Shown here one piece after another: positions 2,290 to 16,970 of a stretch of 64,000 nt of DNA. The first letter of the stretch is position 1, and each line of letters opens with the position of its first letter. The notes beneath the pieces were generated by a model, which was given only the letters and a program-made list of their open reading frames with translations, did not search any database and had not been told where the DNA came from. The DNA lies in contig CAZLEV010000014.1 of assembly GCA_964558645.1 (NCBI GenBank), forward strand, positions 1 through 64,000, in the 5' to 3' direction. A program made the position numbers and the translations under genes. Source of the stretch: an uncultured archaeon (lineage in GTDB: Archaea; Asgardarchaeota; Thorarchaeia; Thorarchaeales; Thorarchaeaceae).

Positions 2290-2343
2290 GAGAAGAAACA
2301 GAAGGAGAAGAAAGAAGAAAGGTTGACAGCTCGCGCTGCCAAC
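2290..2343 (-). terminator. Hairpin plus pyrimidine tract downstream of orphan gene-end copy A
   Basis: Minus strand GTTGGCAGC-GCGA-GCTGTCAAC (GNRA loop, one G.U pair), followed by a long C/T run. Confidence 0.7.
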
Positions 2344-2357
2344 TCGGATGATGCCTC

Positions 2358-2394
2358 TCTATTTCATGGTCTTGACCCATTCGAAGACTGGCTC
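2358..2394 (-). repeat. Orphan copy A of the 3' end of the DUF35 gene (att-like)
   Basis: 36/37 identical to 8925-8961. The single change is synonymous (CCG>CCA). Encodes EPVFEWVKTMK*. Confidence 0.95.
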
Positions 2395-2470
2395 AAGAAA
2401 GATGAAAGAAAGTGACCTAGCCGGCTGAGGCTTCTCACCTCTTCACATCAGCAGTGGGTTTCTGTATGAT

Positions 2471-3271
2471 GTGAGTTTTAAGCGTCAAATCCCAGAGGTA
2501 ACAGCGTGGTATGTTTTGCACACAAATGAGTATTCTGCAATTATCTCTGGCATTAACCGTATACTGAGTGCAGCAAGTGAACGGAACATCACCCTGAAAC
2601 TTATGGGAGGATGGGCAACCCATGTGCACTGTTCGAATCACGATTTCTGTGATAGAGAACATCTCGACATCGACTTTGTGGGACTGCGGTCTCAACACAA
2701 AGAGATAGTCGAGCTGATGGAGGATTCAGGATATACGGAAAACCAAACCATGACCTTGGCCACGAGCGTTTCCCGTTTGCTCTTCGAGAAGCCAGATAGT
2801 TCAGACCACATCGATGTCTTTCTCGACTTCATTGATATGGAGCACTACATAGACCTCAGAGACCGCTTGGATATTGAAGAAACCACCCTCTCGGTCAGCG
2901 ATCTTCTGTTGATCAAGGTCACAACCTCTCCCCTCAATGAGAAAGATCTGAGAGATATCGTGACCATGGTGAAGGATCTTCGTGTTGGCTCCGACGACTC
3001 CCCTGGCACCATCAACAAGGCATACATCGCCGAACTCTGTGCAAAGAGATGGGGTCTCTCCCATGACGTTCTGGTGGCGTTGAGGAACAGCCTGAATATG
3101 CTGTCCAGATACAACCTCCCAGAAGATGTTGAGCTCTCTGTGAGAGAGCGGCTTGAGTCCCTGATTGAAGCAATAGAATCGCATCCCAAATCACTTCGCT
3201 GGAAACTGCGGGCTTTGCTCGGTGAGAGAGTCCCTTGGAGAAGGCTTGTGGAAACTGGGAAGGTGCTTTAG
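2471..3271 (+). CDS. Uncharacterised nucleotidyltransferase-fold protein
   Basis: LKLMGGWA...DIDFVG...HIDVFLD matches the Pol-beta-superfamily hGG-xn-DhD...D pattern. The true start may be slightly downstream. Confidence 0.7.
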   Translation: MSFKRQIPEVTAWYVLHTNEYSAIISGINRILSAASERNITLKLMGGWATHVHCSNHDFCDREHLDIDFVGLRSQHKEIVELMEDSGYTENQTMTLATSVSRLLFEKPDSSDHIDVFLDFIDMEHYIDLRDRLDIEETTLSVSDLLLIKVTTSPLNEKDLRDIVTMVKDLRVGSDDSPGTINKAYIAELCAKRWGLSHDVLVALRNSLNMLSRYNLPEDVELSVRERLESLIEAIESHPKSLRWKLRALLGERVPWRRLVETGKVL

Positions 3272-3440
3272 ACTCAAGTGCGTTTCAGTTCCCCTAAGAA
3301 CCGTTCGATGAGACGCATGTATCATTAAGTGGACCGACAACAGCTGTAGAACTCGATGGAAAGGCACGGAGCGACAGGTCTATGGCACCTGACAATGAAC
3401 CGACTTGGCACTAGCACTTATCGGTGGTTCGTGCGAAACC

Positions 3441-3472
3441 AAAGGAAGAGAGTTGGCTTGATTAGCCAACTC
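3441..3472 (-). terminator. Hairpin plus pyrimidine tract downstream of orphan gene-end copy A2
   Basis: Perfect 9-bp stem GAGTTGGCT/AGCCAACTC (3450-3472) followed on the minus strand by TCTTCCTTT. Confidence 0.65.
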
Positions 3473-3487
3473 CGTCAATTCCGTTCC

Positions 3488-3513
3488 ATTTCATAGTCTT
3501 AACCCATTCGAAG
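3488..3513 (-). repeat. Orphan copy A2 of the 3' end of the DUF35 gene (att-like)
   Basis: ATTTCATAGTCTTAACCCATTCGAAG is 24/26 identical to 8928-8953. Both changes are synonymous (GTC>GTT, ACC>ACT). Encodes FEWVKTMK; the stop position reads TGG. Confidence 0.85.
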
Positions 3514-3528
3514 CCATGCCGTCACAAG

Positions 3529-3732
3529 CTACACTGGATCGATAAAATCTTTCTCAGGAATACGTTTGAAAGATTGATCGTGTGTCATCAAGATCAAATC
3601 CGCAGGACTGAAGTCGCTATTCTTTAGGCCCGTGCCTTTTGTCTTTGGGTCGATGTAGATGTTGTGAGTGTCCGTCCTAATCTGTATACTCGCATGAGCC
3701 AGCAATCGAATCGATATACCTACGATTTTCAC
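3529..3732 (-). pseudogene. Truncated metallo-beta-lactamase-fold gene fused to a PIN-like C-terminus
   Basis: IRLLAHASIQI...IYIDP...ADLILMTH is an MBL N-terminus up to the THxH motif. It continues DQSFKRIPEKDFIDPV*, typical of VapC C-termini. Confidence 0.6.
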
Positions 3733-3909
3733 CTCTGAATGAGAAGATTCCTACGTCTGTATGTCTTTCATGTCCTCTCTTGATCTGAGAGCACCTGAAT
3801 GGAGGCTTCTCTCTTTCGGCCAGATAGACCAAGCCGTCGTAATCTTGAACGCTGTATTCTGCCATGGAAGCAATAATATCCTGATACGCTCCATAAAGCA
3901 TGATTCCTG

Positions 3910-4248
3910 ATGATACGTGAAGTGCTGGGCTGCCTGATACTCGATGAGAACACGGGTCAGCCACTCTACTCTCAGTTCTTTGATGCGGAGCTCAAGAAGA
4001 ATCCATCCAAAATTTCAGCGAAAATCAAATCAAAGGAGCTAAAGCTAGTCCACGAAATGGGCACCCATGCTGTCTATAGTGCTCTGGTCAGTCATGAAAC
4101 GCCTAAGGTCAAGAAGTATCTCAGGGCCTTCAAAGAGAGAGTGGAGAAAACCTATCCTGATGGGCTCAAGCGAGGTAGTGGCAACTTTGCGGATATGTTG
4201 ATCCTTCAGAACATCGTGACTGACGTGTTCGGTGAGATCATGAAATGA
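3910..4248 (+). CDS. Small longin-like domain protein
   Basis: ILDENTGQPLYSQFF beta-hairpin and LRAFKERVEKTYP helix resemble Asgard longin domains. Confidence 0.5.
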   Translation: MIREVLGCLILDENTGQPLYSQFFDAELKKNPSKISAKIKSKELKLVHEMGTHAVYSALVSHETPKVKKYLRAFKERVEKTYPDGLKRGSGNFADMLILQNIVTDVFGEIMK

Positions 4249-4435
4249 GAAAGCTTGGAATGAACCAAGTCAATGCTAGGAGCCCTGCAATCCCTAATGT
4301 TATACCCACATACAGCAATGATAGAATGAAACCGATGATTCCAGAGCCGGACGCGACTGCGATTATGAGTTTCCCCGAGTCAATGTGTGTAGTCGTTGGC
4401 AGACATCCGCCAGCAATCTTAGTGTCTTGGTCCAT
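4238..4435 (-). CDS. Small two-helix membrane protein
   Basis: 65 aa with a hydrophobic C-terminal two-thirds. Follows the coiled-coil gene on the same strand. Confidence 0.5.
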   Translation of the reverse strand: MDQDTKIAGGCLPTTTHIDSGKLIIAVASGSGIIGFILSLLYVGITLGIAGLLALTWFIPSFLIS

Positions 4436-4447
4436 TTGAAGAGAGAC

Positions 4448-5360
4448 CTAGTCCTTCATCGCTTCCTCTTCGCGCTTTCGCCTCTCTTTCTCCAGTTTGT
4501 CAATTCGTTTCTGTCTGGCATCTTCTGCCTTCTTGATTCGCTTTTCCACATCCCGGATACGCTTCTCTGCCTCTGACAACTCCTTCTTCCGACGTTTCTC
4601 CGAGTTCTTGTACTCCTTGCTTGCCTCTTTATACTCCCTCTTCGCAAGACTTAGTTCCCTCTCCAACCCCTCGAGATGGGTCCGTTTCGGCGACGGTGAG
4701 GTAGCGGTCAACCTCAGCGTCAAGACGGGGCCGCATCTTATCCAGCTCGGAGTTCAGCTGTCCCAGTTCGATGGTGTGGGTCTTGATCTCCGAATCAAGA
4801 CTTCTGATTTGCTCATCTCTTGCGAGTTCATCGACAGTCTGTGCAACAGCCGACGGAGGAGTGACCGGAGCATCCTCATGCAAAGCGGCCTCTTGGGGTT
4901 GCGGAGAGGTTGGCTTCGGATGTGGAGGTTCTATCTCTGGCTCAGTCTTAGGCTCTTCAACGGGCGATTGTTCTTGAATCGTTTCAACTGGTTCTTCCTC
5001 AACAGCCTCTACTTCTGCTTCTGGCTCCACTATCTTAGGTTCTGCCTCGGAACCCGCCTGTGCGGCTCTTACTCGCTCAAGGATGTCCTTGACAACTGCC
5101 TTACCACTCTCACGGTCCAACACATAGGACTCAGCCGCCTCGGCTTCTTCCGTTTTCGCTAGATCAGAGGGAGTATCGCTTGTAGGTTCTACGTAGGCTT
5201 CTTCGGGTTGAAAAGCCACCTCTTGGACCGGTTCAGGTCCGGGAGCCTTGACAGGTTCTGGTGCCGATTCTTCCTCTCTCTTGAGGAGAGAGGCCCCGCA
5301 ACGAACACAGTGCTTCCTCGTCACATCATTTGCTCTCCCACACTTCGGGCACGTCTGCAA
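4448..5360 (-). pseudogene. Zinc-ribbon / acidic linker / coiled-coil protein with a frameshift near 4685
   Basis: CPKCG...CVRCG N-terminus in ORF 4629..5360. The coiled coil breaks at TVAET and resumes in another frame as KRTHLEGLERELSLAKRE (ORF 4448..4723). Confidence 0.75.
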
Positions 5361-5451
5361 GTTTTGACAACTCCTAAGCCAAGTAATTACGCAAAATACT
5401 ATGGACTGCCTTCAGATATACATTTGGCATATCCTCTCATTAAGTGAATCT

Positions 5452-5495
5452 TGAGAAAAAGAGAAGGATGAGCTGGTTGTCCCGCGACTTCCAGC
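5452..5495 (-). terminator. Hairpin plus pyrimidine tract downstream of orphan gene-end copy B
   Basis: Minus strand GCTGG-AA-GTC-GCGG-GAC-AA-CCAGC, then TCATCCTTCTCTTTTTCTC. Confidence 0.6.
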
Positions 5496-5510
5496 CCGTT
5501 TATACTGAGG

Positions 5511-5576
5511 TTATTTCATGGTCTTGACCCATTCGAAGACCGGCTCGCACAGCTCCTTGATGCGACGCTTCTCGTC
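5511..5576 (-). repeat. Orphan copy B of the 3' end of the DUF35 gene (att-like)
   Basis: Encodes DEKRRIKELCEPVFEWVKTMK* exactly as 8926-8991. The three nucleotide differences are all silent (CGG>CGC, CTC>CTG, TAG>TAA). Confidence 0.97.
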
Positions 5577-5761
5577 ATCAGTGAAACGGGATTCAACGAC
5601 GGAACAGGACGGGGGCAAGTTGAGAAACGTGCTGGACGTTTTGCCGCGCCCATAATAGCTTTGTGTCGGGTTACCAGCGCTTCTATAACCAAACCTTTGA
5701 ACAAAAAAATATAAGGCAATGTATCTAAGAGTTTCGTGAGTTTGTAGCACAAAGGGGGTAT

Positions 5762-6631
5762 ATGTCTGTGTTTCGTACGGTAGACATCAAGCACAAGTGT
5801 CCGAAGAAGAACCGATTTGTAGTTGCACTGCTCCTAGGTTTCCTAATCCTTGGTCTTGGCTCAATCCCAGATGCAAGGGCAACAACGGTCAATTACTACG
5901 CAGTCATTGTCGGGATCAGCGACTATGATGACTCCACAGGAGTTGAGGATTTGTCGTATGCCGATGATGACGCGAACGATTGGTACTGCTTCCTCACCTA
6001 CACGATTGAGTTTGATGAGGTAAGAGTTCTGGGAGATGACACAAGCTACTATAAGAGCTACTACGCACTGGCGACGAAGACCAACATCGTGAACTCCCTG
6101 AACTGGCTGGTGGGTGTTGCTGACTCAGATGACCAGATTGCGGTCATCTTCGCAGGTCATGGGGGACCACGAGACTACCCCACACCCGATAACGTATATT
6201 TCATCACATGGGACGGAACATTTCTACATGACGATGAATTGGCCTCAATCCTGGCAACTGCAGTGGCCAGCCGCATCTTTGTGTTCCTTGACTTCTGCCG
6301 CTCCGGAGGCTTCTTGAACGATCTCGCCGACATGGGCAACAGCTTCAATGTGTTTGCCACATCAGCCTGCCAGTACAACGGAGTATCGTTCGAGTGGGAT
6401 GACTTACAGAATGGAATCTGGACCTACCATTACATTCTTGAATGGGACAATCTCATACAATCATATGGCTGCAACGTTGCCCAAGAGCTTGTGTATGACG
6501 AGGCATTCGACGGCCTCATGACGTTTGTGAGCAGAACGTCTGAGCTGCAACCTTGGAAGAACAAGAACGATCCTCAGAAATACGATGGCAATCCGAACGG
6601 AGGCTTTGTTATCGGTCCAAAACTCTGGTGA
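5762..6631 (+). CDS. Caspase-family (peptidase C14-like) protein with predicted signal peptide
   Basis: YAVIVGISDY, LSYADDDA, FAGHGG (catalytic His), FLDFCRSGG (catalytic Cys). KK plus a hydrophobic stretch ending ARA at the N-terminus. Confidence 0.88.
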   Translation: MSVFRTVDIKHKCPKKNRFVVALLLGFLILGLGSIPDARATTVNYYAVIVGISDYDDSTGVEDLSYADDDANDWYCFLTYTIEFDEVRVLGDDTSYYKSYYALATKTNIVNSLNWLVGVADSDDQIAVIFAGHGGPRDYPTPDNVYFITWDGTFLHDDELASILATAVASRIFVFLDFCRSGGFLNDLADMGNSFNVFATSACQYNGVSFEWDDLQNGIWTYHYILEWDNLIQSYGCNVAQELVYDEAFDGLMTFVSRTSELQPWKNKNDPQKYDGNPNGGFVIGPKLW

Positions 6632-6827
6632 TGATTATGGAACCTTCGCATGGATAATTGCCAAAGAACTCCAGCAGGAACATGATTGAAGAATCATGGG
6701 ATGGGATGGATGTTGACAACTGACAACTGGATTGGAGGTACTATGAGCTTCCTGCCGATTATTGTGGAATTAGATAATATTCACAATCTGGGTGAGTCGG
6801 ACGGAAACGCGGAAAGAACATCCCTAG

Positions 6828-8747
6828 GTGATATCGGTGGATAGAACGAAGATGCTGCATATGAACAGCTGGAAGTATCTTCTAATCACCATGATACTCA
6901 TTCTCCCACTTGGCCCATCTGACAGTGGCGTGGTCACTCACCTGACAGCAGGTACAGCAGTACTACTTGGCGATGGGTATCAGAGGACTATGGTCTCATT
7001 ATATACCCCCCACGGACCCATCACCATCAACGGGAATGCTGACTTCGAGGACCAGGGGTGGCCGGGGAGCGGGACAGAAGATGACCCCTATGTCATCGAG
7101 GGGCTGCGGATCATAGACAGCTCAACATGCATCACTGTCAGCAACACAGATGTCTACTTCGAGATAAGGGACTGCCTCATCTCGGCAGCTCTGCCGACCA
7201 GCAGCGATGGCATCGTCTTTGACAACGTGACCCATGGAACTGTGAAGGACTGCGTCATCGAGCTGCACGGGTACGGAGTGAGGTTCTCCTCATCACCGAA
7301 CTGCACTGTGGCGGACAGCATCCTATGGAGCAATGGATGTGGAGTCTTCATCGATCACTCAAGTGACTGCTTGGTGAAGAACAACACCATCAGCAATACT
7401 GATGGGAGTGGAATTGCCCTCTCGACACTTCGTGACTGTGTCATTGCGAATAACACCGTCCACAATGCTGGTTGGGCTGGAATCTCTGCCGGATTCGCCT
7501 ACAACTGCATCTACACAGCAAACACCGTCACAAACAGCTCACAATATGGGTTCTATGTTGACTACTCCAACGGGACCTTCACCAATAACAGAGCCATCAA
7601 TAGTCTAAATGGTTTCTACTTCTGGTATGGTTCGACATCTAGCATGATAGGCAATGCTGCCATTGATGCCACCGACTACGGCTTCTACTTCTTCTCCTAC
7701 AAGCATCTGATGATGGAGAAGAACAGAGCTATCTGCAATGGTCGGACGGGATTCTTGTTGGACGGTGATGAATGCACCCTGACCAGCAACGCGGCCATTA
7801 GTAACGGTGAGAGAGGTTTCCTATTGAGTGGCTCTGACTGCATGCTGATCAACAATACCGCTGCTGACAATGTCTGTGGCATCTGTCTAAGCAGATCCAG
7901 TCAGGATGTTTCGCTGTCTCTCAATCGGCTCTACGATAACACTCAGCACAATGCCGTGGACAACGGCACTGCGAATGCCTGGGACAATGGCACACACGGC
8001 AACTACTGGGACGACTATGATGGCGAGGGTGTCTATCTCATTCCGGGTTCGGCAGAGAGCATCGACAACCATCCCTACCGTATCGATAACATCCCGCCCA
8101 CGGTAGACAGTCCAGAAGATATCGCGTACGAGTACGGAACCACCGGGCACAACATCACATGGAACCCTGAGGACCTGAACCCTCACAGCTACGCTGTCTA
8201 TCGCAACGATACAGTGGTGAGAACGGGAGTCTGGAACACAAGCTCCGAGACCATCACCGTGTCTATCGACGGGCTGTCTGTGGGCAGCCATACCTTCACA
8301 CTCGCTGTGAGAGATATACTGGGAAATGAGGGGAGTGACATGGTGCTTGTCACCGTGGTGGACACAACACCACCCATGATCAGTCGTCCAGCAGACATCG
8401 AGTACGAGTATGGCACGACGGGACACACCATCACCTGGGTTGTTGAGGACCTCAATCCTCACAGGTATACTGTCTACCTCAGTGGTGTGCCGGTGAGAGC
8501 AGGGATGTGGAACTCGAGTTCTGAGACCATCACCATCTCCGTGGACGATCTTGATGCTGGCATCCACATCTACACCATCGTCGTGACTGATGCACACGGC
8601 AACAGCGTCTGTGACACAGTCATGGTGACTGTCGTTGACCCTATCATTCGGCTCCAGATGCTGTCCCTCATAGCGACCATTGTCGGAGGAACCGTCACCG
8701 CAGTATTTGGAACATTGATTGTTCTCCACCGTCGGAAGAAGGAATAA
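6828..8747 (+). CDS. Membrane-anchored surface protein: right-handed beta-helix (NosD/CASH-like) plus two Ig-like repeats
   Basis: GSGTEDDPYVIEGL lead-in, many NNT/I-x-N...GF/I repeats, GNYWDDY motif, two ~90-aa repeats (PP..PxDIxYEYGTTGHxITW), C-terminal TM helix followed by RRKKE. Confidence 0.9.
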   Translation: MISVDRTKMLHMNSWKYLLITMILILPLGPSDSGVVTHLTAGTAVLLGDGYQRTMVSLYTPHGPITINGNADFEDQGWPGSGTEDDPYVIEGLRIIDSSTCITVSNTDVYFEIRDCLISAALPTSSDGIVFDNVTHGTVKDCVIELHGYGVRFSSSPNCTVADSILWSNGCGVFIDHSSDCLVKNNTISNTDGSGIALSTLRDCVIANNTVHNAGWAGISAGFAYNCIYTANTVTNSSQYGFYVDYSNGTFTNNRAINSLNGFYFWYGSTSSMIGNAAIDATDYGFYFFSYKHLMMEKNRAICNGRTGFLLDGDECTLTSNAAISNGERGFLLSGSDCMLINNTAADNVCGICLSRSSQDVSLSLNRLYDNTQHNAVDNGTANAWDNGTHGNYWDDYDGEGVYLIPGSAESIDNHPYRIDNIPPTVDSPEDIAYEYGTTGHNITWNPEDLNPHSYAVYRNDTVVRTGVWNTSSETITVSIDGLSVGSHTFTLAVRDILGNEGSDMVLVTVVDTTPPMISRPADIEYEYGTTGHTITWVVEDLNPHRYTVYLSGVPVRAGMWNSSSETITISVDDLDAGIHIYTIVVTDAHGNSVCDTVMVTVVDPIIRLQMLSLIATIVGGTVTAVFGTLIVLHRRKKE

Positions 8748-8873
8748 TTGTAGGCCTCTGCGTTGGCTCAGCACCTGCGTTGCGAGTTTCGTCCCTGAAT
8801 ACCGGCAACGGGAGGGTTCCACATGGCGAAGGGGAGTGTACTGAGTATTCACAATCGGCTGCAATGATTGGTC

Positions 8874-8909
8874 AGAAGAAAGGAGTACTGGGCGGAGATG
8901 ACCGCCCAG
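8874..8909 (-). terminator. Hairpin plus pyrimidine tract after the intact DUF35 gene
   Basis: 8-bp stem CTGGGCGG/CCGCCCAG (8888-8909), then TACTCCTTTCTTCT on the minus strand. Confidence 0.7.
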
Positions 8910-8925
8910 ATAGTTCAAATCAAGT

Positions 8926-9585
8926 CTATTTCATGGTCTTGACCCATTCGAAGACCGGCTCGCAGAGCTCCTTGATCCGACGCTTCTCGTCGTTCATCGG
9001 GCTTGGCTCCCAGTCATCTGCCGGCTCAAAGTGCCAGTCGGTCACTGTGCCGCGACGAGTCTTCTTGTCGTGCCAGACCACCTTGACGGGCATGCCGAAC
9101 TCAGCATCCCACGGGTCGAGACCGCGGAGCTCGTTGGCTATAGCCACGTTGCAGCCGTCGACGACCACGTATGCGAGCACGAAGGGCAGGCGTTTCAATG
9201 AGCTCTTACCGCTCCAGCCCGCGATGGTGAATGTATGCACAGTCCCGCGCTGTGCGAGCTCAACCCATTCTGTCTTCTCGAGATTGCAATCCAGACGCCA
9301 GCAGTTCACCCTCGGCGGGAAGAACTTGTCACCGCACTTGGGACACTTGGTACCCCAGAACTCGCCGTCAACGAAGCCCTTGCCGAGCTTCGACACCTCA
9401 GCGAGTTTCCAATAGTAGAGCTGATCGTAGTGCAGGTAGACCTTGAACTGCTCCTCGGTGGGATCCCAGTCGTAGCCTACGAAATGGATGCCATCTTCCT
9501 TGACGTCGCCCCTGAACTCCTCAGAGTGCTTCTCAGCGTAGTCGACATCGCCAGGAGTCTTGTGTAGTCGTTTGTCTTCTACCAT
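8926..9585 (-). CDS. DUF35-type Zn-ribbon/OB-fold protein (thiolase partner)
   Basis: GTKCPKCG..FFPPRVNC...C, GTVHTFTI, PFVLAYVVVDG, GMPVKVVW. Starts 1 bp after the thiolase stop. Confidence 0.92.
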   Translation of the reverse strand: MVEDKRLHKTPGDVDYAEKHSEEFRGDVKEDGIHFVGYDWDPTEEQFKVYLHYDQLYYWKLAEVSKLGKGFVDGEFWGTKCPKCGDKFFPPRVNCWRLDCNLEKTEWVELAQRGTVHTFTIAGWSGKSSLKRLPFVLAYVVVDGCNVAIANELRGLDPWDAEFGMPVKVVWHDKKTRRGTVTDWHFEPADDWEPSPMNDEKRRIKELCEPVFEWVKTMK

Positions 9586-9586
9586 T

Positions 9587-10873
9587 TCACGGCCTCCTCA
9601 GAATGAAGTTCGAGATACTGGTCCCAGTACCTGCATGACTGTTCACAAGCCCGGTCTCTGCGTCCTTGACGTAGGTCTCTGAGCTCAAGTGTCTCTTCGG
9701 AGCAAGGTCATTCAAGTGGTACATGCACTCGATTGCGGACATGATACCTGTTGCACCGACCGGATGACCGTAACCCATGAGGCCGCCACCCACGTTGGTC
9801 GGGACCTCGCCGTCCATGAAGGTCTCCTTGTTTCGTATGAAATCATGGATGTTCTCCTTATCACACCAGTGGAGAGCCTTGTATATCTGGACCTCAGATG
9901 AGCTGAAGGCATCGTGGATCTCTGCAACATCGATCTCCTTGGCTGCCTTCTTGTACTCGATTCCAGCCATATCATATGCTACTTCACCAGAACGACGACA
10001 TGCCGCGAATTCCGTCATGTCAGGGTAGCCTTTTCCGTACATCTCGTTCCAGCCGGGGAAGTCAAGTCTGTCACCGGCACGAATGGTGCAACTGCTCAGT
10101 CCCGCACCATCTATACGCACATAGGTGTTAGGCGCGTGCTTCTTGGCCCACTCCTCAGATGTCACAAGTGCAAAGGCTCCACCACGACTCATCAGACAGC
10201 AGTCAAACTTCTTCAGCGGGTAGCTGATCAGCCTGCTCTCCATGATGTCGTCCACCGTGAGCTTCTTCTTGTAGTATCTCGAGTCTGGGTTGTTGTAGTC
10301 ATGACGATACCACTGTGAACGCTCGTTGTCAGCTGCGTAGTTCCTGTTCTTCATTGCAGCCAGAGCGAAGTCTTCCTCTGTGAGGTCGTGCTCCTTCATG
10401 AACTTGTACGCCATCGCTGCGTAGTAGATCGGATAGATTCCGCCAGCGAGTGCCTCGTAACGTGTATCTGAGGCGAGTGCAATGAACTCCGAACCCTGTG
10501 ATTGGGTCACATTGTCCATTGTCTCCCAGCCGTAGACCCCGACAACGTCGAAGAGTCCCGACTTCACCGCCATGAATGCTCCGTATAGAGCTGAACCTCC
10601 AGTATTTCCGCCGTTCTCGATTCGCACGTGGGGCAGACCAACCAGTCCTAGATGGTCATGCACAATCCATTCAGGACAGAGCTGCTTTCCAAAGTGCACG
10701 CTGAAATGCGAGTAGACCATGAACTCCAGATCCCTAAGAGTGAAATCTGGAATGTCATGCTGCGTTTCAACGATGCAGTTGGCAGCCATGGCCTCTGGGG
10801 TTATATGCATTGGATAACCAAAAGGAGTTGCTGCGCCACCTGCGATACATACATTCCTAGTCATTCGTATCAC
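9587..10873 (-). CDS. Thiolase-fold protein (SCP2/archaeal type), lacking the N-terminal catalytic Cys
   Basis: EIHDAFS, NVGGGL..GHPVGATG, DCCLMS. ENGGNTGG stands where ENACASG is usual. Confidence 0.9.
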   Translation of the reverse strand: MIRMTRNVCIAGGAATPFGYPMHITPEAMAANCIVETQHDIPDFTLRDLEFMVYSHFSVHFGKQLCPEWIVHDHLGLVGLPHVRIENGGNTGGSALYGAFMAVKSGLFDVVGVYGWETMDNVTQSQGSEFIALASDTRYEALAGGIYPIYYAAMAYKFMKEHDLTEEDFALAAMKNRNYAADNERSQWYRHDYNNPDSRYYKKKLTVDDIMESRLISYPLKKFDCCLMSRGGAFALVTSEEWAKKHAPNTYVRIDGAGLSSCTIRAGDRLDFPGWNEMYGKGYPDMTEFAACRRSGEVAYDMAGIEYKKAAKEIDVAEIHDAFSSSEVQIYKALHWCDKENIHDFIRNKETFMDGEVPTNVGGGLMGYGHPVGATGIMSAIECMYHLNDLAPKRHLSSETYVKDAETGLVNSHAGTGTSISNFILRRP

Positions 10874-11261: not shown

Positions 11262-11693
11262 GTGATCGAAGTGCCATTCTTTGAGAGCTCGGAACAACTG
11301 AGAGATGTGTTTGAAGAATTCTGGAAACGTGCAAAAGAAAATGAGGAAGTCATGGAGAAGCTTGAGAAGTCAGGGATTGTCGTAAGGTTCGACATTGAAC
11401 AACCCGAACTCCACGTTACAATCGACTTCAAGAATCCAGGTCCAGAGGGTGAACTGGGCACTCTATCATTTGACAGTGATGTTGAACCCGAGATTGCTGT
11501 CTGGAGCACATCAGAGACCACAAACAAGTTCTGGCAGGGAAAGCTTAACACAACCATAGCCATGGCAAAGAGAGAAGTCAAGATGGAGGGGTCCATTCCC
11601 AAGGCACTGGGACTCCTATCTAAGATTAAGCCGCTCTTCAAGGTGTTTCCAGAGGTCCTGCGGGACAAGGGTCTTGACCACATGATTGTGTAG
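11262..11693 (+). CDS. SCP2 sterol/lipid-binding domain protein
   Basis: FWQGKLNTTIAMAKREVKMEGS is the SCP2 C-terminal pattern. Divergent from the thiolase. Confidence 0.85.
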   Translation: MIEVPFFESSEQLRDVFEEFWKRAKENEEVMEKLEKSGIVVRFDIEQPELHVTIDFKNPGPEGELGTLSFDSDVEPEIAVWSTSETTNKFWQGKLNTTIAMAKREVKMEGSIPKALGLLSKIKPLFKVFPEVLRDKGLDHMIV

Positions 11694-11717
11694 AGAAACT
11701 GTGAGGACTGAGGAGAA

Positions 11718-12680
11718 GTGAATCATCTTCAACCTGTAGACAGACTTGAGATTGTGATCTTAGTTGACAACTCCGTCTGCCACAAGCAGACCACGGCCCC
11801 GGTAGTCTCGCCGGCATCTGAATGGATGAATCTGCCCGAAGGTATCGAACCGAACCTGCGGTCAGGGCATGGACTTGCGCTCTTGGTGAAGACAGAAGTT
11901 GATGATAAAGCCCATCAGGTGCTGTATGATACTGGACCGTCGAAGGAACTACTCCTGCACAATGCGTCCGAGTTAGGGATTGACCTGGAGCAGATCGATG
12001 CGATTGCAGTCAGCCATGGGCACTGGGATCACATGGGCGGTCTCCTCGGGGCGATAGAAACCATTGGTAAGCCAGACATTCCTGTCTACGTCCATGAGGC
12101 CATGTTTCGAAAGAGAGGTGTTGAGCGCAAGTTCCTGTTCTGGAAGAGAAACCGAGAGTTCTCCAGAGTTCCAACAGAACAGGAGATTGAGAGTGCAGGC
12201 GGTAGGCTTGTCTATAGCCCCAATCCAACGCCCCTTGCCGATTCCACCCTTGTGACAGGAGGAGAGATTCCCCGCACTACTTTCTACGAGAAAGGCTTCC
12301 CGGGACATAGGGCATTCATCAACTCGGAATGGGTGGAGGATGAAGATGTGATTGATGATAGCTGTTTGGTGGCACATGTCCGTGAGCGAGGGATAGTCAT
12401 AATGGCAGGATGCAGTCACGCAGGTGTTGTCAACATCACTCGTCATGCCGCAAGCATAACGGAGGAGAACGAGATTCTCAACATCCTTGGTGGATTTCAT
12501 CTGGAAGGCAAGAACGAAGACAGGATAGATCCAACAATCTCGGACCTGCAAAAGCACAGACCACAATACATTACGCCCATTCATTGCACAGGATCAAAGG
12601 CACAGAAGGAGATGCAAAGTAGCTTCGGGGACAGGTACATCAGGGGATGTGTAGGAGACCGTTTCGTGTTCGACGCCTGA
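11718..12680 (+). CDS. Metallo-beta-lactamase-fold hydrolase (MJ0301/COG1237-like)
   Basis: HGLALLV, LYDTG, SHGHWDHMGGL, GCSHAG, GGFHL, HCTG. Confidence 0.9.
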   Translation: MNHLQPVDRLEIVILVDNSVCHKQTTAPVVSPASEWMNLPEGIEPNLRSGHGLALLVKTEVDDKAHQVLYDTGPSKELLLHNASELGIDLEQIDAIAVSHGHWDHMGGLLGAIETIGKPDIPVYVHEAMFRKRGVERKFLFWKRNREFSRVPTEQEIESAGGRLVYSPNPTPLADSTLVTGGEIPRTTFYEKGFPGHRAFINSEWVEDEDVIDDSCLVAHVRERGIVIMAGCSHAGVVNITRHAASITEENEILNILGGFHLEGKNEDRIDPTISDLQKHRPQYITPIHCTGSKAQKEMQSSFGDRYIRGCVGDRFVFDA

Positions 12681-12963: not shown

Positions 12964-13818
12964 CTATTCATCATTGGGCTTGACCCGTCCGTACAGACGG
13001 CCTGATTCCTCCTCAGACATCTCGAAGCTGTGATTAGAGTCGGGGAAGCTCCCCTTCCTAACGTCATCAGAATATTCTTGCACTGCTTTGACTATCACGC
13101 TTCGGATGTCTGCATATTTCTTCACGAACTTTGGTTTGAACTCTTCAAACAATCCCAGCATGTCCCATAATACCAAGACCTGTCCGTCACAGTGAGGCCC
13201 TGCGCCAATACCAATAGTTGGAATGGTAACAGCCTCTGTGATGAGCCTTGCAGTCTCGCTGGGAACGAGTTCAATCACCAGAGAAAATGCGCCGGCTGAT
13301 TCAAGGTCTTTTGCCTGTTCCACAAGAAGTTCGGCCTTGTCTGCTGTCCGCCCCTGTACTCTATAGCCACCAAGCTCGAAGATCGACTGTGGCGTCAAGC
13401 CTATGTGACCCATGACAGGTATACCTGCGTCCACTATGGCCTCAACCGTAGGCAGCACTCTCCCTGCCCCCTCAATCTTCACTGCTTCAGCACCGCCTTG
13501 TTGCAGCATACGACCACAGTTCTCAAGAGCCTGTTCTATGGAGACCTTATAGGACATGAAAGGCATGTCTCCGACAATCAACGATTTTGGCCCGCCACGT
13601 TTCACAGCTGCACAATGGTGGATAACGTCCTCAAGGGTCACAGGGATTGTGCTTTCGTAACCCAACAGTGAGTTCCCCACGGAATCCCCCACAAGGATGA
13701 TGTCAACACCGCATTCGCTCAGTATCTTCGCTGTGGGAGCGTCATAGGCTGTGAGCATCACAATCTTCTGACCCTTTTCTTTCATCAACTGAATCTTGTG
13801 AGTCGTCTTTCGCGCCAA
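12964..13818 (-). CDS. panB: 3-methyl-2-oxobutanoate hydroxymethyltransferase
   Basis: MLTAYD, ILVGDS, GDMPFMSY, AVKIEG, GHIGLTPQ, IGIGAG..CDGQVLV. TTG start inferred at 13818. Confidence 0.97.
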   Translation of the reverse strand: MARKTTHKIQLMKEKGQKIVMLTAYDAPTAKILSECGVDIILVGDSVGNSLLGYESTIPVTLEDVIHHCAAVKRGGPKSLIVGDMPFMSYKVSIEQALENCGRMLQQGGAEAVKIEGAGRVLPTVEAIVDAGIPVMGHIGLTPQSIFELGGYRVQGRTADKAELLVEQAKDLESAGAFSLVIELVPSETARLITEAVTIPTIGIGAGPHCDGQVLVLWDMLGLFEEFKPKFVKKYADIRSVIVKAVQEYSDDVRKGSFPDSNHSFEMSEEESGRLYGRVKPNDE

Positions 13819-14048
13819 GGCTATTTCATCCGAGTAAGACTGACTCTGACGGTTATATATAGAGTTCCCATAGTAGATATGAAGCGTATACAGAATACAT
13901 AGATACATCAACCTTAGACTCTTAACAGGTCATCTGTGGGAGTATATCTTCCGTCTGTGTGGCGCCTCAGAACTCTCAACATCAAGGAGCGAGGGAACCA
14001 AGCCGACCATGGTCAAGGGAATCTGGACCAACATCAGCCATGTATGCT

Positions 14049-16970
14049 TTACAGCTCTATGTTTCGATCCCTAAGGTACATCTTGTACAGCTCCATTCCG
14101 ACGATTGCAGGAAGAGACAAGATGATGCAGATGAACCAGTCATATGATGTGAGCGGCATGAAGTAGAAGTCCAAACCGTAGAAGCTCAAGATTTCCTGTA
14201 CGATAGGCACATACATCAGCAGGAGATGTGCCAAGTAGATGAGTCCTAGGAAAAAGACATACCTGATGGTGCCGGGCTCTCGCAGGCTCTCATGAAGGGG
14301 CATATTGATTCTCCGTATGATCAAGACTAATGTGCTCTCTACAAGGAGGATTACGGTTAACATCATGATAGTGGCCTTCAAGGGAGCGTCTACTATCCCT
14401 GCATAGGTTCCGGCAATATTCTCAGGATACAGACCGACCACTCCCATCCAACCAGTAAATGTCAGGAAATACGCCATGCCTGTTCCGAAGGCCATAAGGA
14501 TGACATTGATGGCCATGAACTTGGCAAACGGTCTGTTGATTATCTCCTCGCTATCTCGAGGCTTCTCTTTCATTGCATTTGGTGAGACCTTATCAAACAC
14601 AAGAGCCAGACCGGGGAAAGAGTGCGTGGTCACAACAAGGTAGAGGCTCTGCCATGAGGACAGCATGTTGACATATGCAGGAAGGAAGAATAACGCCCCA
14701 AAGAATATGATACTCTCAAAGAGATTGACGGCTATGTAGAAATACACCATCATTCGTATCTTGGCAAAGAGGCCTCTTCCTTCGTGAACCCCGGTCACGA
14801 TAGAAGCAAAGCTATCATCGGTGATGACCAGGTCAGCTGCCTCCTTGGCCACATCGGTGCCTGTAATGCCCATTGCAATGCCTGCATCACTCATCGCCAA
14901 TGCGAGTGCATCATTGACTCCGTCACCAGTCATGGCTACTACCTTGCCCTGATCCTGATACCGCTCCACTATGACCTGTTTATGCTCAGGATTGACACGG
15001 GCAAAAACGTTGACTCTGCCAAAGTCGTCATCTGACAGGTCAGGAATCTCGGTGCCCTCAGCCACGAGAGAGAAGTCAGACATGATATTGAGATCTGAGG
15101 CAATAGTCTTTGCAGTTGCTGAGGCGTCACCCGTGATCATAATGACGTTGATCCCTGCATTGTGGCAGGCGTCTACAGCCTCGCGAACCCCATATCTCGG
15201 GGGGTCAACCAACGAGGCAAACCCAAGATACGTAAGGCCGCGTTCTGTTTCCTCACGTGCTCGGTTCGACCGAGGCACTGTATTCATATTCTTGTAGGCC
15301 AAAGAAATGACCCGATAACCTTGCTCTGCAAATGACACAGACATCTCTTCTATCTTGCGTCGCGTTTCTGAGTCCAGTGTAGATACGCTATTCCCGTTGT
15401 CAACTGAGTCACAGCGCTCAAGGAGTATCTCAGTGGCCCCCTTGACAAAGGCAATGTACTTACCATCATCCTCGCATATCTTGGACATCCTCTTCAGTCC
15501 TGACTCGAAGGGGAATTCTTCGACAATCTTATAATGAGAGCGAAGCGAATCCTCATCTAAGCCGCTCTTGCGAAAGAGAGTCAGTAGGGCAGCATCGGTT
15601 GGATCGCCCAGAGGTGTCCATACCTCTTCACCCTCTTCAGTGACCTGCTTCTTGATGAGAGCAGCGTCGTTGTTGATTCCTCCACATACTATTAGTTTCT
15701 TGAGGGTGGGCATACTAGAAATGTCTGAAACAAGAGAGAGATCTTCAGGATTCGTGTAATCTTGGAGTCTCGAGTCTCGTACACGATAGATTGCGCCCTC
15801 AGGCTCGTAGCCTGTTCCTGTCACCTTGTAAAGATGCTCCGTGTCGCAGATGTAAGTGACCGTCATTGCATTACGTGTCATGGTACCTGTCTTGTCTGAA
15901 CAGATCACGCTGACCCGGCCTAGGCTCTCCACGGCGGAGAGGTCGCGTATGATGACTCCCTGTTTGGCCATTGCCAATACTCCTGTCAAGAGCACGATTG
16001 TGGTCAACAGGGGGATATTGATGGGCATGATGGTCATCGCCCTAGTTATTCCTTCAGTGAGATGCGCAGCAACCGCATAGATACCGAAGTCAAATCCAGA
16101 GGCATCCAGTAGTGGAAGAACTAATGCACGCCATATGATGGATATGGTCATGAGGCCCACCGCGGCTATCCCGAGGTATTTCGCAAGCCTATTCACCTTC
16201 TTCCTGAGAGGGATATCACCTGTGTTCAGTCTTTCAAGAGAGCCCTGTATCTTGCCAATCTCAGTATTGCTACCTATTGCTGTTGCGATAGATAATGCAG
16301 TTCCAGTGGCAACATATGTTCCAAAAAAGACCATGTTCTTCATTTCTGTGAGAGGAGCATCTCGTGATACTTCTACAGACTCTTCTTTGGCTACAGGGAC
16401 ACTCTCTCCAGTCAGAGAGGCTTCATTCACACTCAGATTAGAGGCATTTGCAAGACGAGCGTCAGCAGGCACACGGTCACCCTGCTCAAGCTTGACAATA
16501 TCACCGGGCACAAGCTCCTGAGGCAAGATCTCTTTCTCCGTTCCATTGCGGATGACCCGGCACTTGCCTGCGGACAACTTCTCCAGAGCTTCGAGCTTCT
16601 TCTGGGCCCGAAACTGCTGAAAGATAGCCACGATACAGTTGACCGTCACAACCGCCAACCAGAGGAGTGCCTGGCTGATGTCGGTTTCTGGCGAGGGAAA
16701 AGCCCATGCTAGGAAGAGGAGCGCAAAGGAACTCACAAGATAGATCGTGATGAGCCAGTTCAATATGGGCGCAAGGTATACTTTCCAGAAGCTGCCCTTG
16801 ATTTTCTTGACGGCGTTTGGCCCATACTTGTCCTGGCGCGACTTGACCTCTTCTTCTGAGAGGCCGTTCGCCACATCGGTTGAAAGATGCTTGACAACAT
16901 CCTCAAGTGGCATCGCATGATAATCCACATCTTCTGATGGAGCTGTTGTGATGGCTTCCTGATTGGACAA
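14049..16970 (-). CDS. P-type ATPase, P2-like scaffold with atypical ion-binding motifs
   Basis: LTGES, CSDKTGT, KGATE, DPPR, TGD, MTGDGVND and about 10 TM segments. TM4 reads PINIP rather than PEGLP. Confidence 0.95.
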   Translation of the reverse strand: MSNQEAITTAPSEDVDYHAMPLEDVVKHLSTDVANGLSEEEVKSRQDKYGPNAVKKIKGSFWKVYLAPILNWLITIYLVSSFALLFLAWAFPSPETDISQALLWLAVVTVNCIVAIFQQFRAQKKLEALEKLSAGKCRVIRNGTEKEILPQELVPGDIVKLEQGDRVPADARLANASNLSVNEASLTGESVPVAKEESVEVSRDAPLTEMKNMVFFGTYVATGTALSIATAIGSNTEIGKIQGSLERLNTGDIPLRKKVNRLAKYLGIAAVGLMTISIIWRALVLPLLDASGFDFGIYAVAAHLTEGITRAMTIMPINIPLLTTIVLLTGVLAMAKQGVIIRDLSAVESLGRVSVICSDKTGTMTRNAMTVTYICDTEHLYKVTGTGYEPEGAIYRVRDSRLQDYTNPEDLSLVSDISSMPTLKKLIVCGGINNDAALIKKQVTEEGEEVWTPLGDPTDAALLTLFRKSGLDEDSLRSHYKIVEEFPFESGLKRMSKICEDDGKYIAFVKGATEILLERCDSVDNGNSVSTLDSETRRKIEEMSVSFAEQGYRVISLAYKNMNTVPRSNRAREETERGLTYLGFASLVDPPRYGVREAVDACHNAGINVIMITGDASATAKTIASDLNIMSDFSLVAEGTEIPDLSDDDFGRVNVFARVNPEHKQVIVERYQDQGKVVAMTGDGVNDALALAMSDAGIAMGITGTDVAKEAADLVITDDSFASIVTGVHEGRGLFAKIRMMVYFYIAVNLFESIIFFGALFFLPAYVNMLSSWQSLYLVVTTHSFPGLALVFDKVSPNAMKEKPRDSEEIINRPFAKFMAINVILMAFGTGMAYFLTFTGWMGVVGLYPENIAGTYAGIVDAPLKATIMMLTVILLVESTLVLIIRRINMPLHESLREPGTIRYVFFLGLIYLAHLLLMYVPIVQEILSFYGLDFYFMPLTSYDWFICIILSLPAIVGMELYKMYLRDRNIEL

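Follow-up and report, generated by a model that had tools for sequence, protein, structure and literature searches.

The first 64 kb of contig C14 in a 3.63-Mb metagenome-assembled genome (MAG, here G000) of the archaeal family Thorarchaeaceae, hereafter the window, contain a DUF35 gene whose 3' end is repeated downstream as a series of orphan gene ends, each followed by a terminator-like hairpin and separated from the next by a block of cargo DNA. We interpret this array as an accretion hotspot where conserved gene ends receive DNA by homology-directed insertion and no dedicated site-specific recombinase takes part, a reading to which we give somewhat better than an even chance. Because no integrase lies nearby, the cell's own homology-based recombination probably does here the job that integrons do in bacteria.

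An array of gene ends behind a DUF35 gene

The array extends from the DUF35 gene towards the start of the contig and consists of the following parts (positions in the window).

9587-10873, minus strand: thiolase-domain gene upstream of DUF35, within the conserved anchor (NCBIfam PRK06365, E=1.7e-93, below the family cut-off)
8926-9585, minus strand: DUF35 (ChsH2 Zn-ribbon/OB) gene, 219 aa, whose 3' end is the target (PF01796, E=3e-11)
8888-8909, minus strand: head of cassette 1, terminator-like hairpin with pyrimidine tract (folding)
5577-8925, no strand: cassette 1, with genes for a beta-helix membrane protein (6828-8747, plus strand) and a caspase-like protein (5762-6631, plus strand)
5511-5576, minus strand: orphan end 1, 66 nt, with 3 silent differences from the gene
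5470-5497, minus strand: head hairpin of cassette 2 (folding)
3514-5510, no strand: cassette 2, with a frameshifted Zn-ribbon gene (4448-5360), a membrane-gene fragment (4260-4418), a small open reading frame (ORF; 3910-4248) and a fusion of metallo-beta-lactamase (MBL) and PIN sequences
4424-4441, minus strand: truncated fifth orphan end, 18 nt, recognised by alignment to a 29-nt orphan behind the same Zn-ribbon tail in genome G001
3486-3513, minus strand: orphan end 2, 28 nt, stop codon decayed to TGG
3449-3473, minus strand: head hairpin of cassette 3 (folding)
2395-3485, no strand: cassette 3, with a nucleotidyltransferase-like gene (2471-3271, plus strand; weak PF10706/PF14907)
2359-2394, minus strand: orphan end 3, 36 nt, with 1 silent difference
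2322-2343, minus strand: head hairpin of cassette 4 (folding)
1-2358, no strand: cassette 4, running on into contig C8, with MNT (1575-1997), HEPN (1142-1702), an AbrB-type gene and a split PIN gene

An earlier note on this DNA, made from its letters alone, had described four versions of the gene end. All four lie where it placed them and in direct orientation, the six substitutions among them are all silent, the copy at 3488 has TAG changed to TGG, and the four hairpins (8888-8909, ~5470-5497, ~3449-3473 and 2322-2343) fold and differ from one another. Its count was incomplete, as it missed the truncated end at 4424-4441. Beyond the window, two further, more decayed orphan ends lie on C8 (C8:346 and C8:4000), the contig whose start overlaps the reverse complement of C14 by 55 nt. 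Chance can be excluded as the source of these copies, since the core 26-mer, with up to 5 mismatches allowed, occurs at six sites in the whole 3.6-Mb genome, all within the DUF35 array, and a profile scan for orphan ends gave 0 null matches in 1.45 Mb.

As for the gene content, the cassette 1 proteins match Pfam NosD/Beta_helix and Peptidase_C14, and cassette 3 has no DNA homologue among the other arrays that we fetched. The note's 'MBL fragment' is real in that the 5' part of an MBL gene is present, joined at ~3592 to the 3' end of a PIN-domain gene; its 'longin' label for 3910-4248 was not confirmed by Pfam. At position 4682, the site of its frameshift, the Zn-ribbon gene has 5 extra bases in sequencing runs X3 and X4. 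In cassette 4, the PIN gene is split by a multicopy repeat (1-437) that lies at the contig break and has about ten copies, 69-89% alike; a 67-nt tandem duplication with 29-nt identical ends (566-661, inside the PIN gene) is absent from a contig of run X4. The thiolase-fold protein upstream (9587-10873) has ENGGNTG at the position of the thiolase catalytic cysteine and, from its sequence, is possibly an Ltp2-like aldolase with DUF35 as its partner.

Assembly support and strain variation

All the genomes considered here are MAGs, G000 has 6% contamination and a contig break falls inside the array, features that would suit a strain-chimeric misassembly, which the earlier note had named as what would undo its reading, or a plain tandem duplication inside one genome. 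Against this, contigs from the likely source run have even depth over the array and break at the repeats, and run X2, from another study, bridges the copies at 2359 and 3486 without differences; from this independent bridging of two junctions we conclude that the array is not misassembled. Orphan end 2 (3486-3513) is spanned by contigs from runs X1, X2 and X3. In addition, the same architecture is found in 35 genomes, the blocks differ in terminators and cargo, and in 10 of 14 arrays the resident gene is not the best match of the first orphan, the gene of another genome being closer. Misassembly and tandem duplication are thus largely refuted, and we find either one hardly credible.

The run X3 sample holds a strain ~98% identical to the window across 2358-5540, in which gene position 8977 carries the allele of the orphan end at 5511, as expected if that orphan was once the end of the DUF35 gene. 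With X3 contig depths of ~68 for the gene, ~52 for cassette 2 and ~14 for the beta-helix head, most of this population may lack cassette 1, contig depth not being the same as share of cells. Among the assembled contigs, no circular joint was seen.

Orphan ends across the family

We next surveyed 86 genomes of the family, in which DUF35 orthologues are 71-82% identical. A degenerate pattern of the gene end matched at least twice in 33 of them, and its reversed control never more than once. The regions fetched hold 91 orphan DUF35 ends from 35 genomes, a number that is not a frequency because regions were picked for having matches; the longest series, in G031, has 10 orphans across 30 kb. The expectation that blocks behind the orthologue would vary in number and content between relatives was borne out. 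In sixteen genomes, the fetched region contained an intact gene without a full orphan, and even there the DNA behind the gene is variable.

Orphan ends range from 25 to 360 nt and fall into ~73 junction classes, 23 of them at 25-41 nt, and all end at the stop codon, where homology ceases. Hardly any orphans measure 8-24 nt: 283 kb yielded one clear case, of 13 nt. An apparent 24-nt periodicity of the lengths was set aside, since alignments tend to end on conserved codons. A hairpin with a pyrimidine tract stands behind 63 of the 91 orphans, compared with 15 of 885 random sites. Between orphans and the nearest intact gene, the ratio of nonsynonymous to synonymous change (pN/pS) is ~0.25, a trace of past purifying selection overlaid by later decay, and this value supports the proposal that the copies were once functional gene ends. 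Strict newest-first order, implied by the idea that blocks were added one after another, is only weakly supported: the relation of decay to rank is not significant (p=0.2), and orphan length drops weakly with rank (rho -0.34, p=0.03, for copies that are not independent).

Outside the Thorarchaeia, 28 orthologue loci (mostly Thermoplasmata, some other Asgards) gave 1 marginal match to the orphan ends against 5 null matches, and the genes there end in a nearly identical C-terminal peptide. Separately, a lone 26-nt orphan with a terminator lies behind what appears to be a different DUF35 paralogue (locus L094, G095:C1:90455), with no intact orthologue within 6.5 kb upstream.

Blocks between orphan ends behave as cassettes

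To follow the blocks themselves, we grouped the flanks of the orphans by similarity, taking the DNA ahead of each orphan as its tail and the DNA behind each stop codon as its head. This gave 13 recurrent tail classes, almost always with differing heads, a few of them representing neighbouring rather than identical junctions. Whole blocks also recur: G087 and G089 have in common a complete head-to-tail block of 1.9 kb (98% identity), and G076 and G082 one of 0.83 kb (87%), each with other neighbours on both sides, so that the blocks behave as cassettes. Cassette 1 of the window is found in G001 (3.3 kb, 84%) with the same head and tail junction, again between other neighbours, and not in first position; its head class also stands behind C8:346 and behind a G001 orphan, and the head class of cassette 2 is common to G002, G031 and G070. 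The blocks are discrete, free of integrases and different between relatives, as had been supposed from the window.

Blocks measure 0.4-10 kb and carry genes for beta-helix and other membrane proteins, HEPN-MNT and AbrB-PIN pairs, methyltransferases, TPR proteins, ABC transporters and one type I restriction system, with 78 cargo ORFs in sense and 73 in antisense orientation. Cassette 2 is informative about where such DNA comes from. It matches the last cassette of a relative, with the Zn-ribbon gene and its orphan end (truncated in the window), and then core genes situated past the array in G001 and on C8 (81-82% to G001 11404-12424 and 13544-14197, 74% to intact genes on C8). In the window, cassette 2 stops within the core MBL gene, which is fused to a PIN-gene tail that precedes other orphan ends. 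Its content therefore indicates that donor DNA extended past the gene end into normal chromosomal sequence, and that the point of joining was arbitrary.

These blocks weigh heavily against an origin by RNA or cDNA copying, in which 5'-truncated copies with a common 3' end would be made by reverse transcription primed at the gene end. Such copying would yield the common 3' end, the variable 5' truncation and the attached terminator; yet the terminators differ from end to end, each end is followed by kilobases of DNA, cargo lies on both strands, blocks contain intergenic DNA and genes cut midway, and cassettes are already seen moving with untranscribed DNA intact. Moreover, a domain scan of 66 cargo representatives gave no reverse transcriptase among the cargo families listed (up to 25 per list). 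We consider this origin very unlikely.

Other gene ends form similar arrays

When 3113 ORFs of G000 were scanned, clear downstream arrays of 3' ends appeared only at DUF35 and nrdD, in a scan whose 5'-end control is weak, start codons being uncertain. The nrdD array, behind an intein-containing gene (G000:C5:155958-178598; loci L052 and L053), has four orphan ends and two near-duplicate blocks. Arrays of variable length occur at nrdD family-wide, their sequence is unrelated to the DUF35 end and, by eye, their orphan ends mostly lack a hairpin of the DUF35 type. Two orphan ends of the uS19 gene, with synonymous changes and a pyrimidine tract behind each, lie 16 and 45 kb downstream of G000:C2:294661-295080. 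What these targets have in common is strong conservation up to the stop codon beside dispensable DNA.

Copies of 3' ends were also seen behind tRNA genes of G000 (C2:120592, C2:432898 and C3:111608): three for tRNA-Leu, one for tRNA-Gly and one for tRNA-Cys, the last being a second tRNA-Cys gene. Contig C4 carries very long tandem arrays with a period of ~76 bp (~48-56 kb and 83-109 kb), which may be akin to CRISPRs (clustered regularly interspaced short palindromic repeats).

Searches for an att site and a recombinase

The earlier note had proposed that a 26-bp core, including the palindrome TTCGAA, serves as att site. We rejected both as such, the core matching only 3 and the palindrome occurring in only 10 of the 91 orphans, while orphan lengths vary from 25 to 360 nt, exchange points vary and unrelated gene ends are used alike. 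Of the two routes that it left open, recombination through short homology is the better supported. A second candidate, an imperfect ATGG-7-CCAT dyad present in the window copies, was considered as a tyrosine-recombinase site or a mimic of the tRNA T-arm and dismissed: it is found in 25 of 91 orphans and in 10 of 32 intact genes, hence not enriched, and the nrdD and uS19 ends have no motif in common with it. A simple attC pattern (RYYYAAC...GTTRRRY) was absent, on either strand, from all 91 orphan regions.

Recombinase genes were equally elusive at the arrays, where the note had advised looking for a tyrosine or serine recombinase beside the core in any relative; there is none on any array contig of the 86 genomes. 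PF00589 is present in 29 of these genomes and PF00239 in 23, the latter not in G000, and neither matches any array contig; several array-rich genomes lack both. A serine recombinase was therefore discarded as a candidate, as was host XerA acting in trans, since 57 of the 86 genomes, including G031 with its 10 orphans, have no PF00589 match. The PF00589 query likewise did not find a conserved XerA in these 57 genomes, and the only tyrosine recombinase of G000 (C1:469554-470795; L055:555-1796) scores far under the XerA cut-off.

These results constrain the view that the arrays are remains similar to cis-mobilizable elements (CIMEs), left by a tyrosine or serine recombinase, in trans or since lost, that integrated circles at an att site of fixed position within the gene end, with variable orphan lengths stemming from attP construction or erosion. 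The precedent is good, as tandem accretion of ICEs (integrative and conjugative elements), IMEs (integrative and mobilizable elements) and integrase-free CIMEs of the ICESt1/ICESt3 family is documented at the 3' ends of fda, rpsI and rpmG (PMC7563491). The 25-nt length floor, the dyad of the window copies, whose 7-nt centre is included in the G087/G089 crossover interval described below, and the PF00589 genes in a third or so of the genomes would also fit. Nevertheless, no integrase-bearing member occupies the site in any of 49 arrays (230 kb), in MAGs that are incomplete and with PF07508 not queried, the dyad is not enriched, exchange points fall beyond it, and the nrdD and uS19 ends do without its motif. 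We judge such an origin improbable.

Exchange points and a model of insertion

Exchange points, counted from the end of the stop codon, could be placed in few informative pairs, and they vary. In the G087/G089 pair, the exchange lies between ~-25 and ~-10; in the class H5, it lies upstream of -24 in three genomes, which have a decay mutation in common together with the head and not the tail; and in one G031 pair it lies downstream of -15. G033 holds two populations, with genes 77% identical and a 4.4-kb cassette 98.8% identical, where exchanges map at ~-160 and -11; in one of the two populations, ~150 nt of host-type sequence is found in both gene and orphan. Such doubling does not come from a single reciprocal crossover unless gene conversion followed. 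Where the native continuation is known (few cases), junctions join at 1-5 nt of microhomology.

A long, one-sided homologous anchor is present, the DUF35 gene being conserved in the family and the DNA after its stop variable, and the second junction falls into 73 classes, with variable microhomologies in the few cases just named. In our model, DNA from a related Thorarchaeia cell would pair within the conserved thiolase-DUF35 genes, which serve as the long anchor, and the donor would supply its own gene end, terminator and downstream genes. The far end of the donor would then join the recipient just upstream of the stop codon, either at a microhomology of a few bases, which would give an orphan of new length, or, far more commonly, through an orphan end that the donor already carries, with ~25-100 bp of homology. 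The recipient's former end and terminator would be displaced downstream, and the same short repeats would allow blocks to be deleted, reordered and possibly looped out. The transfer route, the enzymes and a linear or circular intermediate are conjectural parts of this model.

Homology-directed insertion is favoured by the continuum of orphan lengths, by shared junctions with different terminators, by cassettes that recur among new neighbours, by the varied exchange points with their microhomologies, by a cassette 2 that ends in a core MBL gene, by unrelated nrdD and uS19 ends that form the same arrays, and by array contigs without a recombinase. The near-absence of 8-24-nt orphans is as expected from a minimum pairing length, and arms of 35-40 bp suffice for gene replacement in Sulfolobus (PMC6249222). 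Several points weigh against it. The 25-nt floor equally fits the size of a recombinase or protein-binding site and is therefore not decisive alone. That few of the 3113 ORFs are used is left unexplained, as is the lack of arrays at orthologues with the same C-terminal peptide in Thermoplasmata and other lineages. In bacteria, homology-facilitated illegitimate recombination seldom occurs (PMC5361080). Later mutation or gene conversion could have produced some of the crossover markers, and both members of the G033 pair come from a single mixed bin.

The small number of genes used and the absence of arrays in other lineages with the same gene keep alive a nuclease-primed version, in which an endonuclease, in cis or in trans, cuts by the gene end and repair copies the donor via the gene body and the donor's orphan end, different enzymes accounting for different orphan lengths. 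Its repair step is identical to that of our model, and it would account for the few targets and for the trait being lineage-specific. The gene nrdD is a classic homing target, and here it carries an intein. The first cassette of the G031 array encodes an HNH nuclease with NUMOD3 repeats (618 aa; L032:13644-15500), and such a protein is found in one further array. However, nuclease genes are uncommon among the cargo: 2 of the 49 arrays have a member of the HNH family, and other nuclease domains gave single matches, among those listed for 66 cargo representatives; no DNA endonuclease was found among the scanned ORFs of the window cassettes; and ~70 junction positions would demand many specificities. 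Homing of this kind seems to us unlikely.

Going beyond insertion by the cell's general recombination, the arrays could reflect a dedicated and so far undescribed Asgard gene-capture system, in which a host or trans factor peculiar to the lineage opens or cuts the 3' ends of selected conserved genes (DUF35, nrdD, uS19 and tRNAs) and cassettes are inserted by homology on the 25-bp scale. We put this forward tentatively and lean against it; if true, it would do the work of an integron without integrase or att site.

Relation to known systems

In the way it works, the array resembles an integron or a CIME array, but it lacks defining features of both. As in the ICE/IME/CIME tandems, the 3' end of a conserved protein-coding gene is targeted and direct repeats of that end flank each block, and as in CIMEs (1-13 kb) the cargo blocks are integrase-free. 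Those CIMEs, however, share their tandems with elements that encode an integrase, two or three to a site, and have fixed att sites, whereas here up to 10 or more blocks are joined through repeats of 25-360 nt, with no fixed crossover and no integrase-bearing member. Small swappable cassettes, shuffled between genomes behind a fixed platform, recall integrons and clusters of attC sites lacking integron-integrases (CALINs), including archaeal ones (PMC9668308). Unlike these, the arrays have no IntI on their contigs in the 86 genomes (the only PF00589 match of G000 is on C1) and no attC; their boundary is a coding gene end with a terminator, and their cargo, on two strands, is not made of co-oriented single-gene cassettes.

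In their formation, the arrays may be closer to the immunity arrays of the Vibrio type VI secretion system (T6SS) and the orphan 3' modules of Rhs and contact-dependent inhibition (CDI) loci, which are ascribed to homology-facilitated illegitimate recombination (PMC5361080). The likeness lies in a conserved upstream anchor, serial downstream displacement of the old 3' part, copies from different strains and the absence of an integrase. In T6SS and Rhs arrays, the variable 3' module that is displaced is itself the payload under selection, whereas here the gene end is constant and acts only as a landing pad, at several housekeeping genes, for cargo unrelated to it. Genomic islands of the tycheposon type carry repeated tRNA 3' ends. 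Displaced fragments of the target's 3' end likewise mark successive insertions in tRNA-end islands such as the Asgard aloposons (PMC8813620), and G000 has copies of tRNA-Leu, -Gly and -Cys ends as well; unlike the arrays, those islands are tied to integrases or transposases and to tRNA targets. A further parallel lies in homing. Free-standing homing endonuclease elements can replace the C-terminal end of a host gene, the donor end restoring the gene and the old end being displaced downstream. In them a nuclease gene is the rule; here, it is the exception.

A keyword search of the literature on Asgard mobile elements and archaeal integrons, covering few subscription journals, returned no such structure (PMC8813620, PMC11529989, PMC9668308). 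Asgard genomes probably gain many genes, and the routes described so far rely on integrases, transposases and viruses. In the family studied here, housekeeping genes are followed by islands that change quickly and hold surface proteins, toxin-antitoxin pairs, restriction systems and transporters, and whose blocks are swapped across species and genera with no integrase seen. The arrays also help account for the breaks of MAG contigs at these genes and point to natural landing sites for future Asgard genetics. Because orphan ends log the order and origin of transfers and provide crossover markers, the rules of short-homology recombination become testable from population data, in the closest prokaryotic relatives of eukaryotes.

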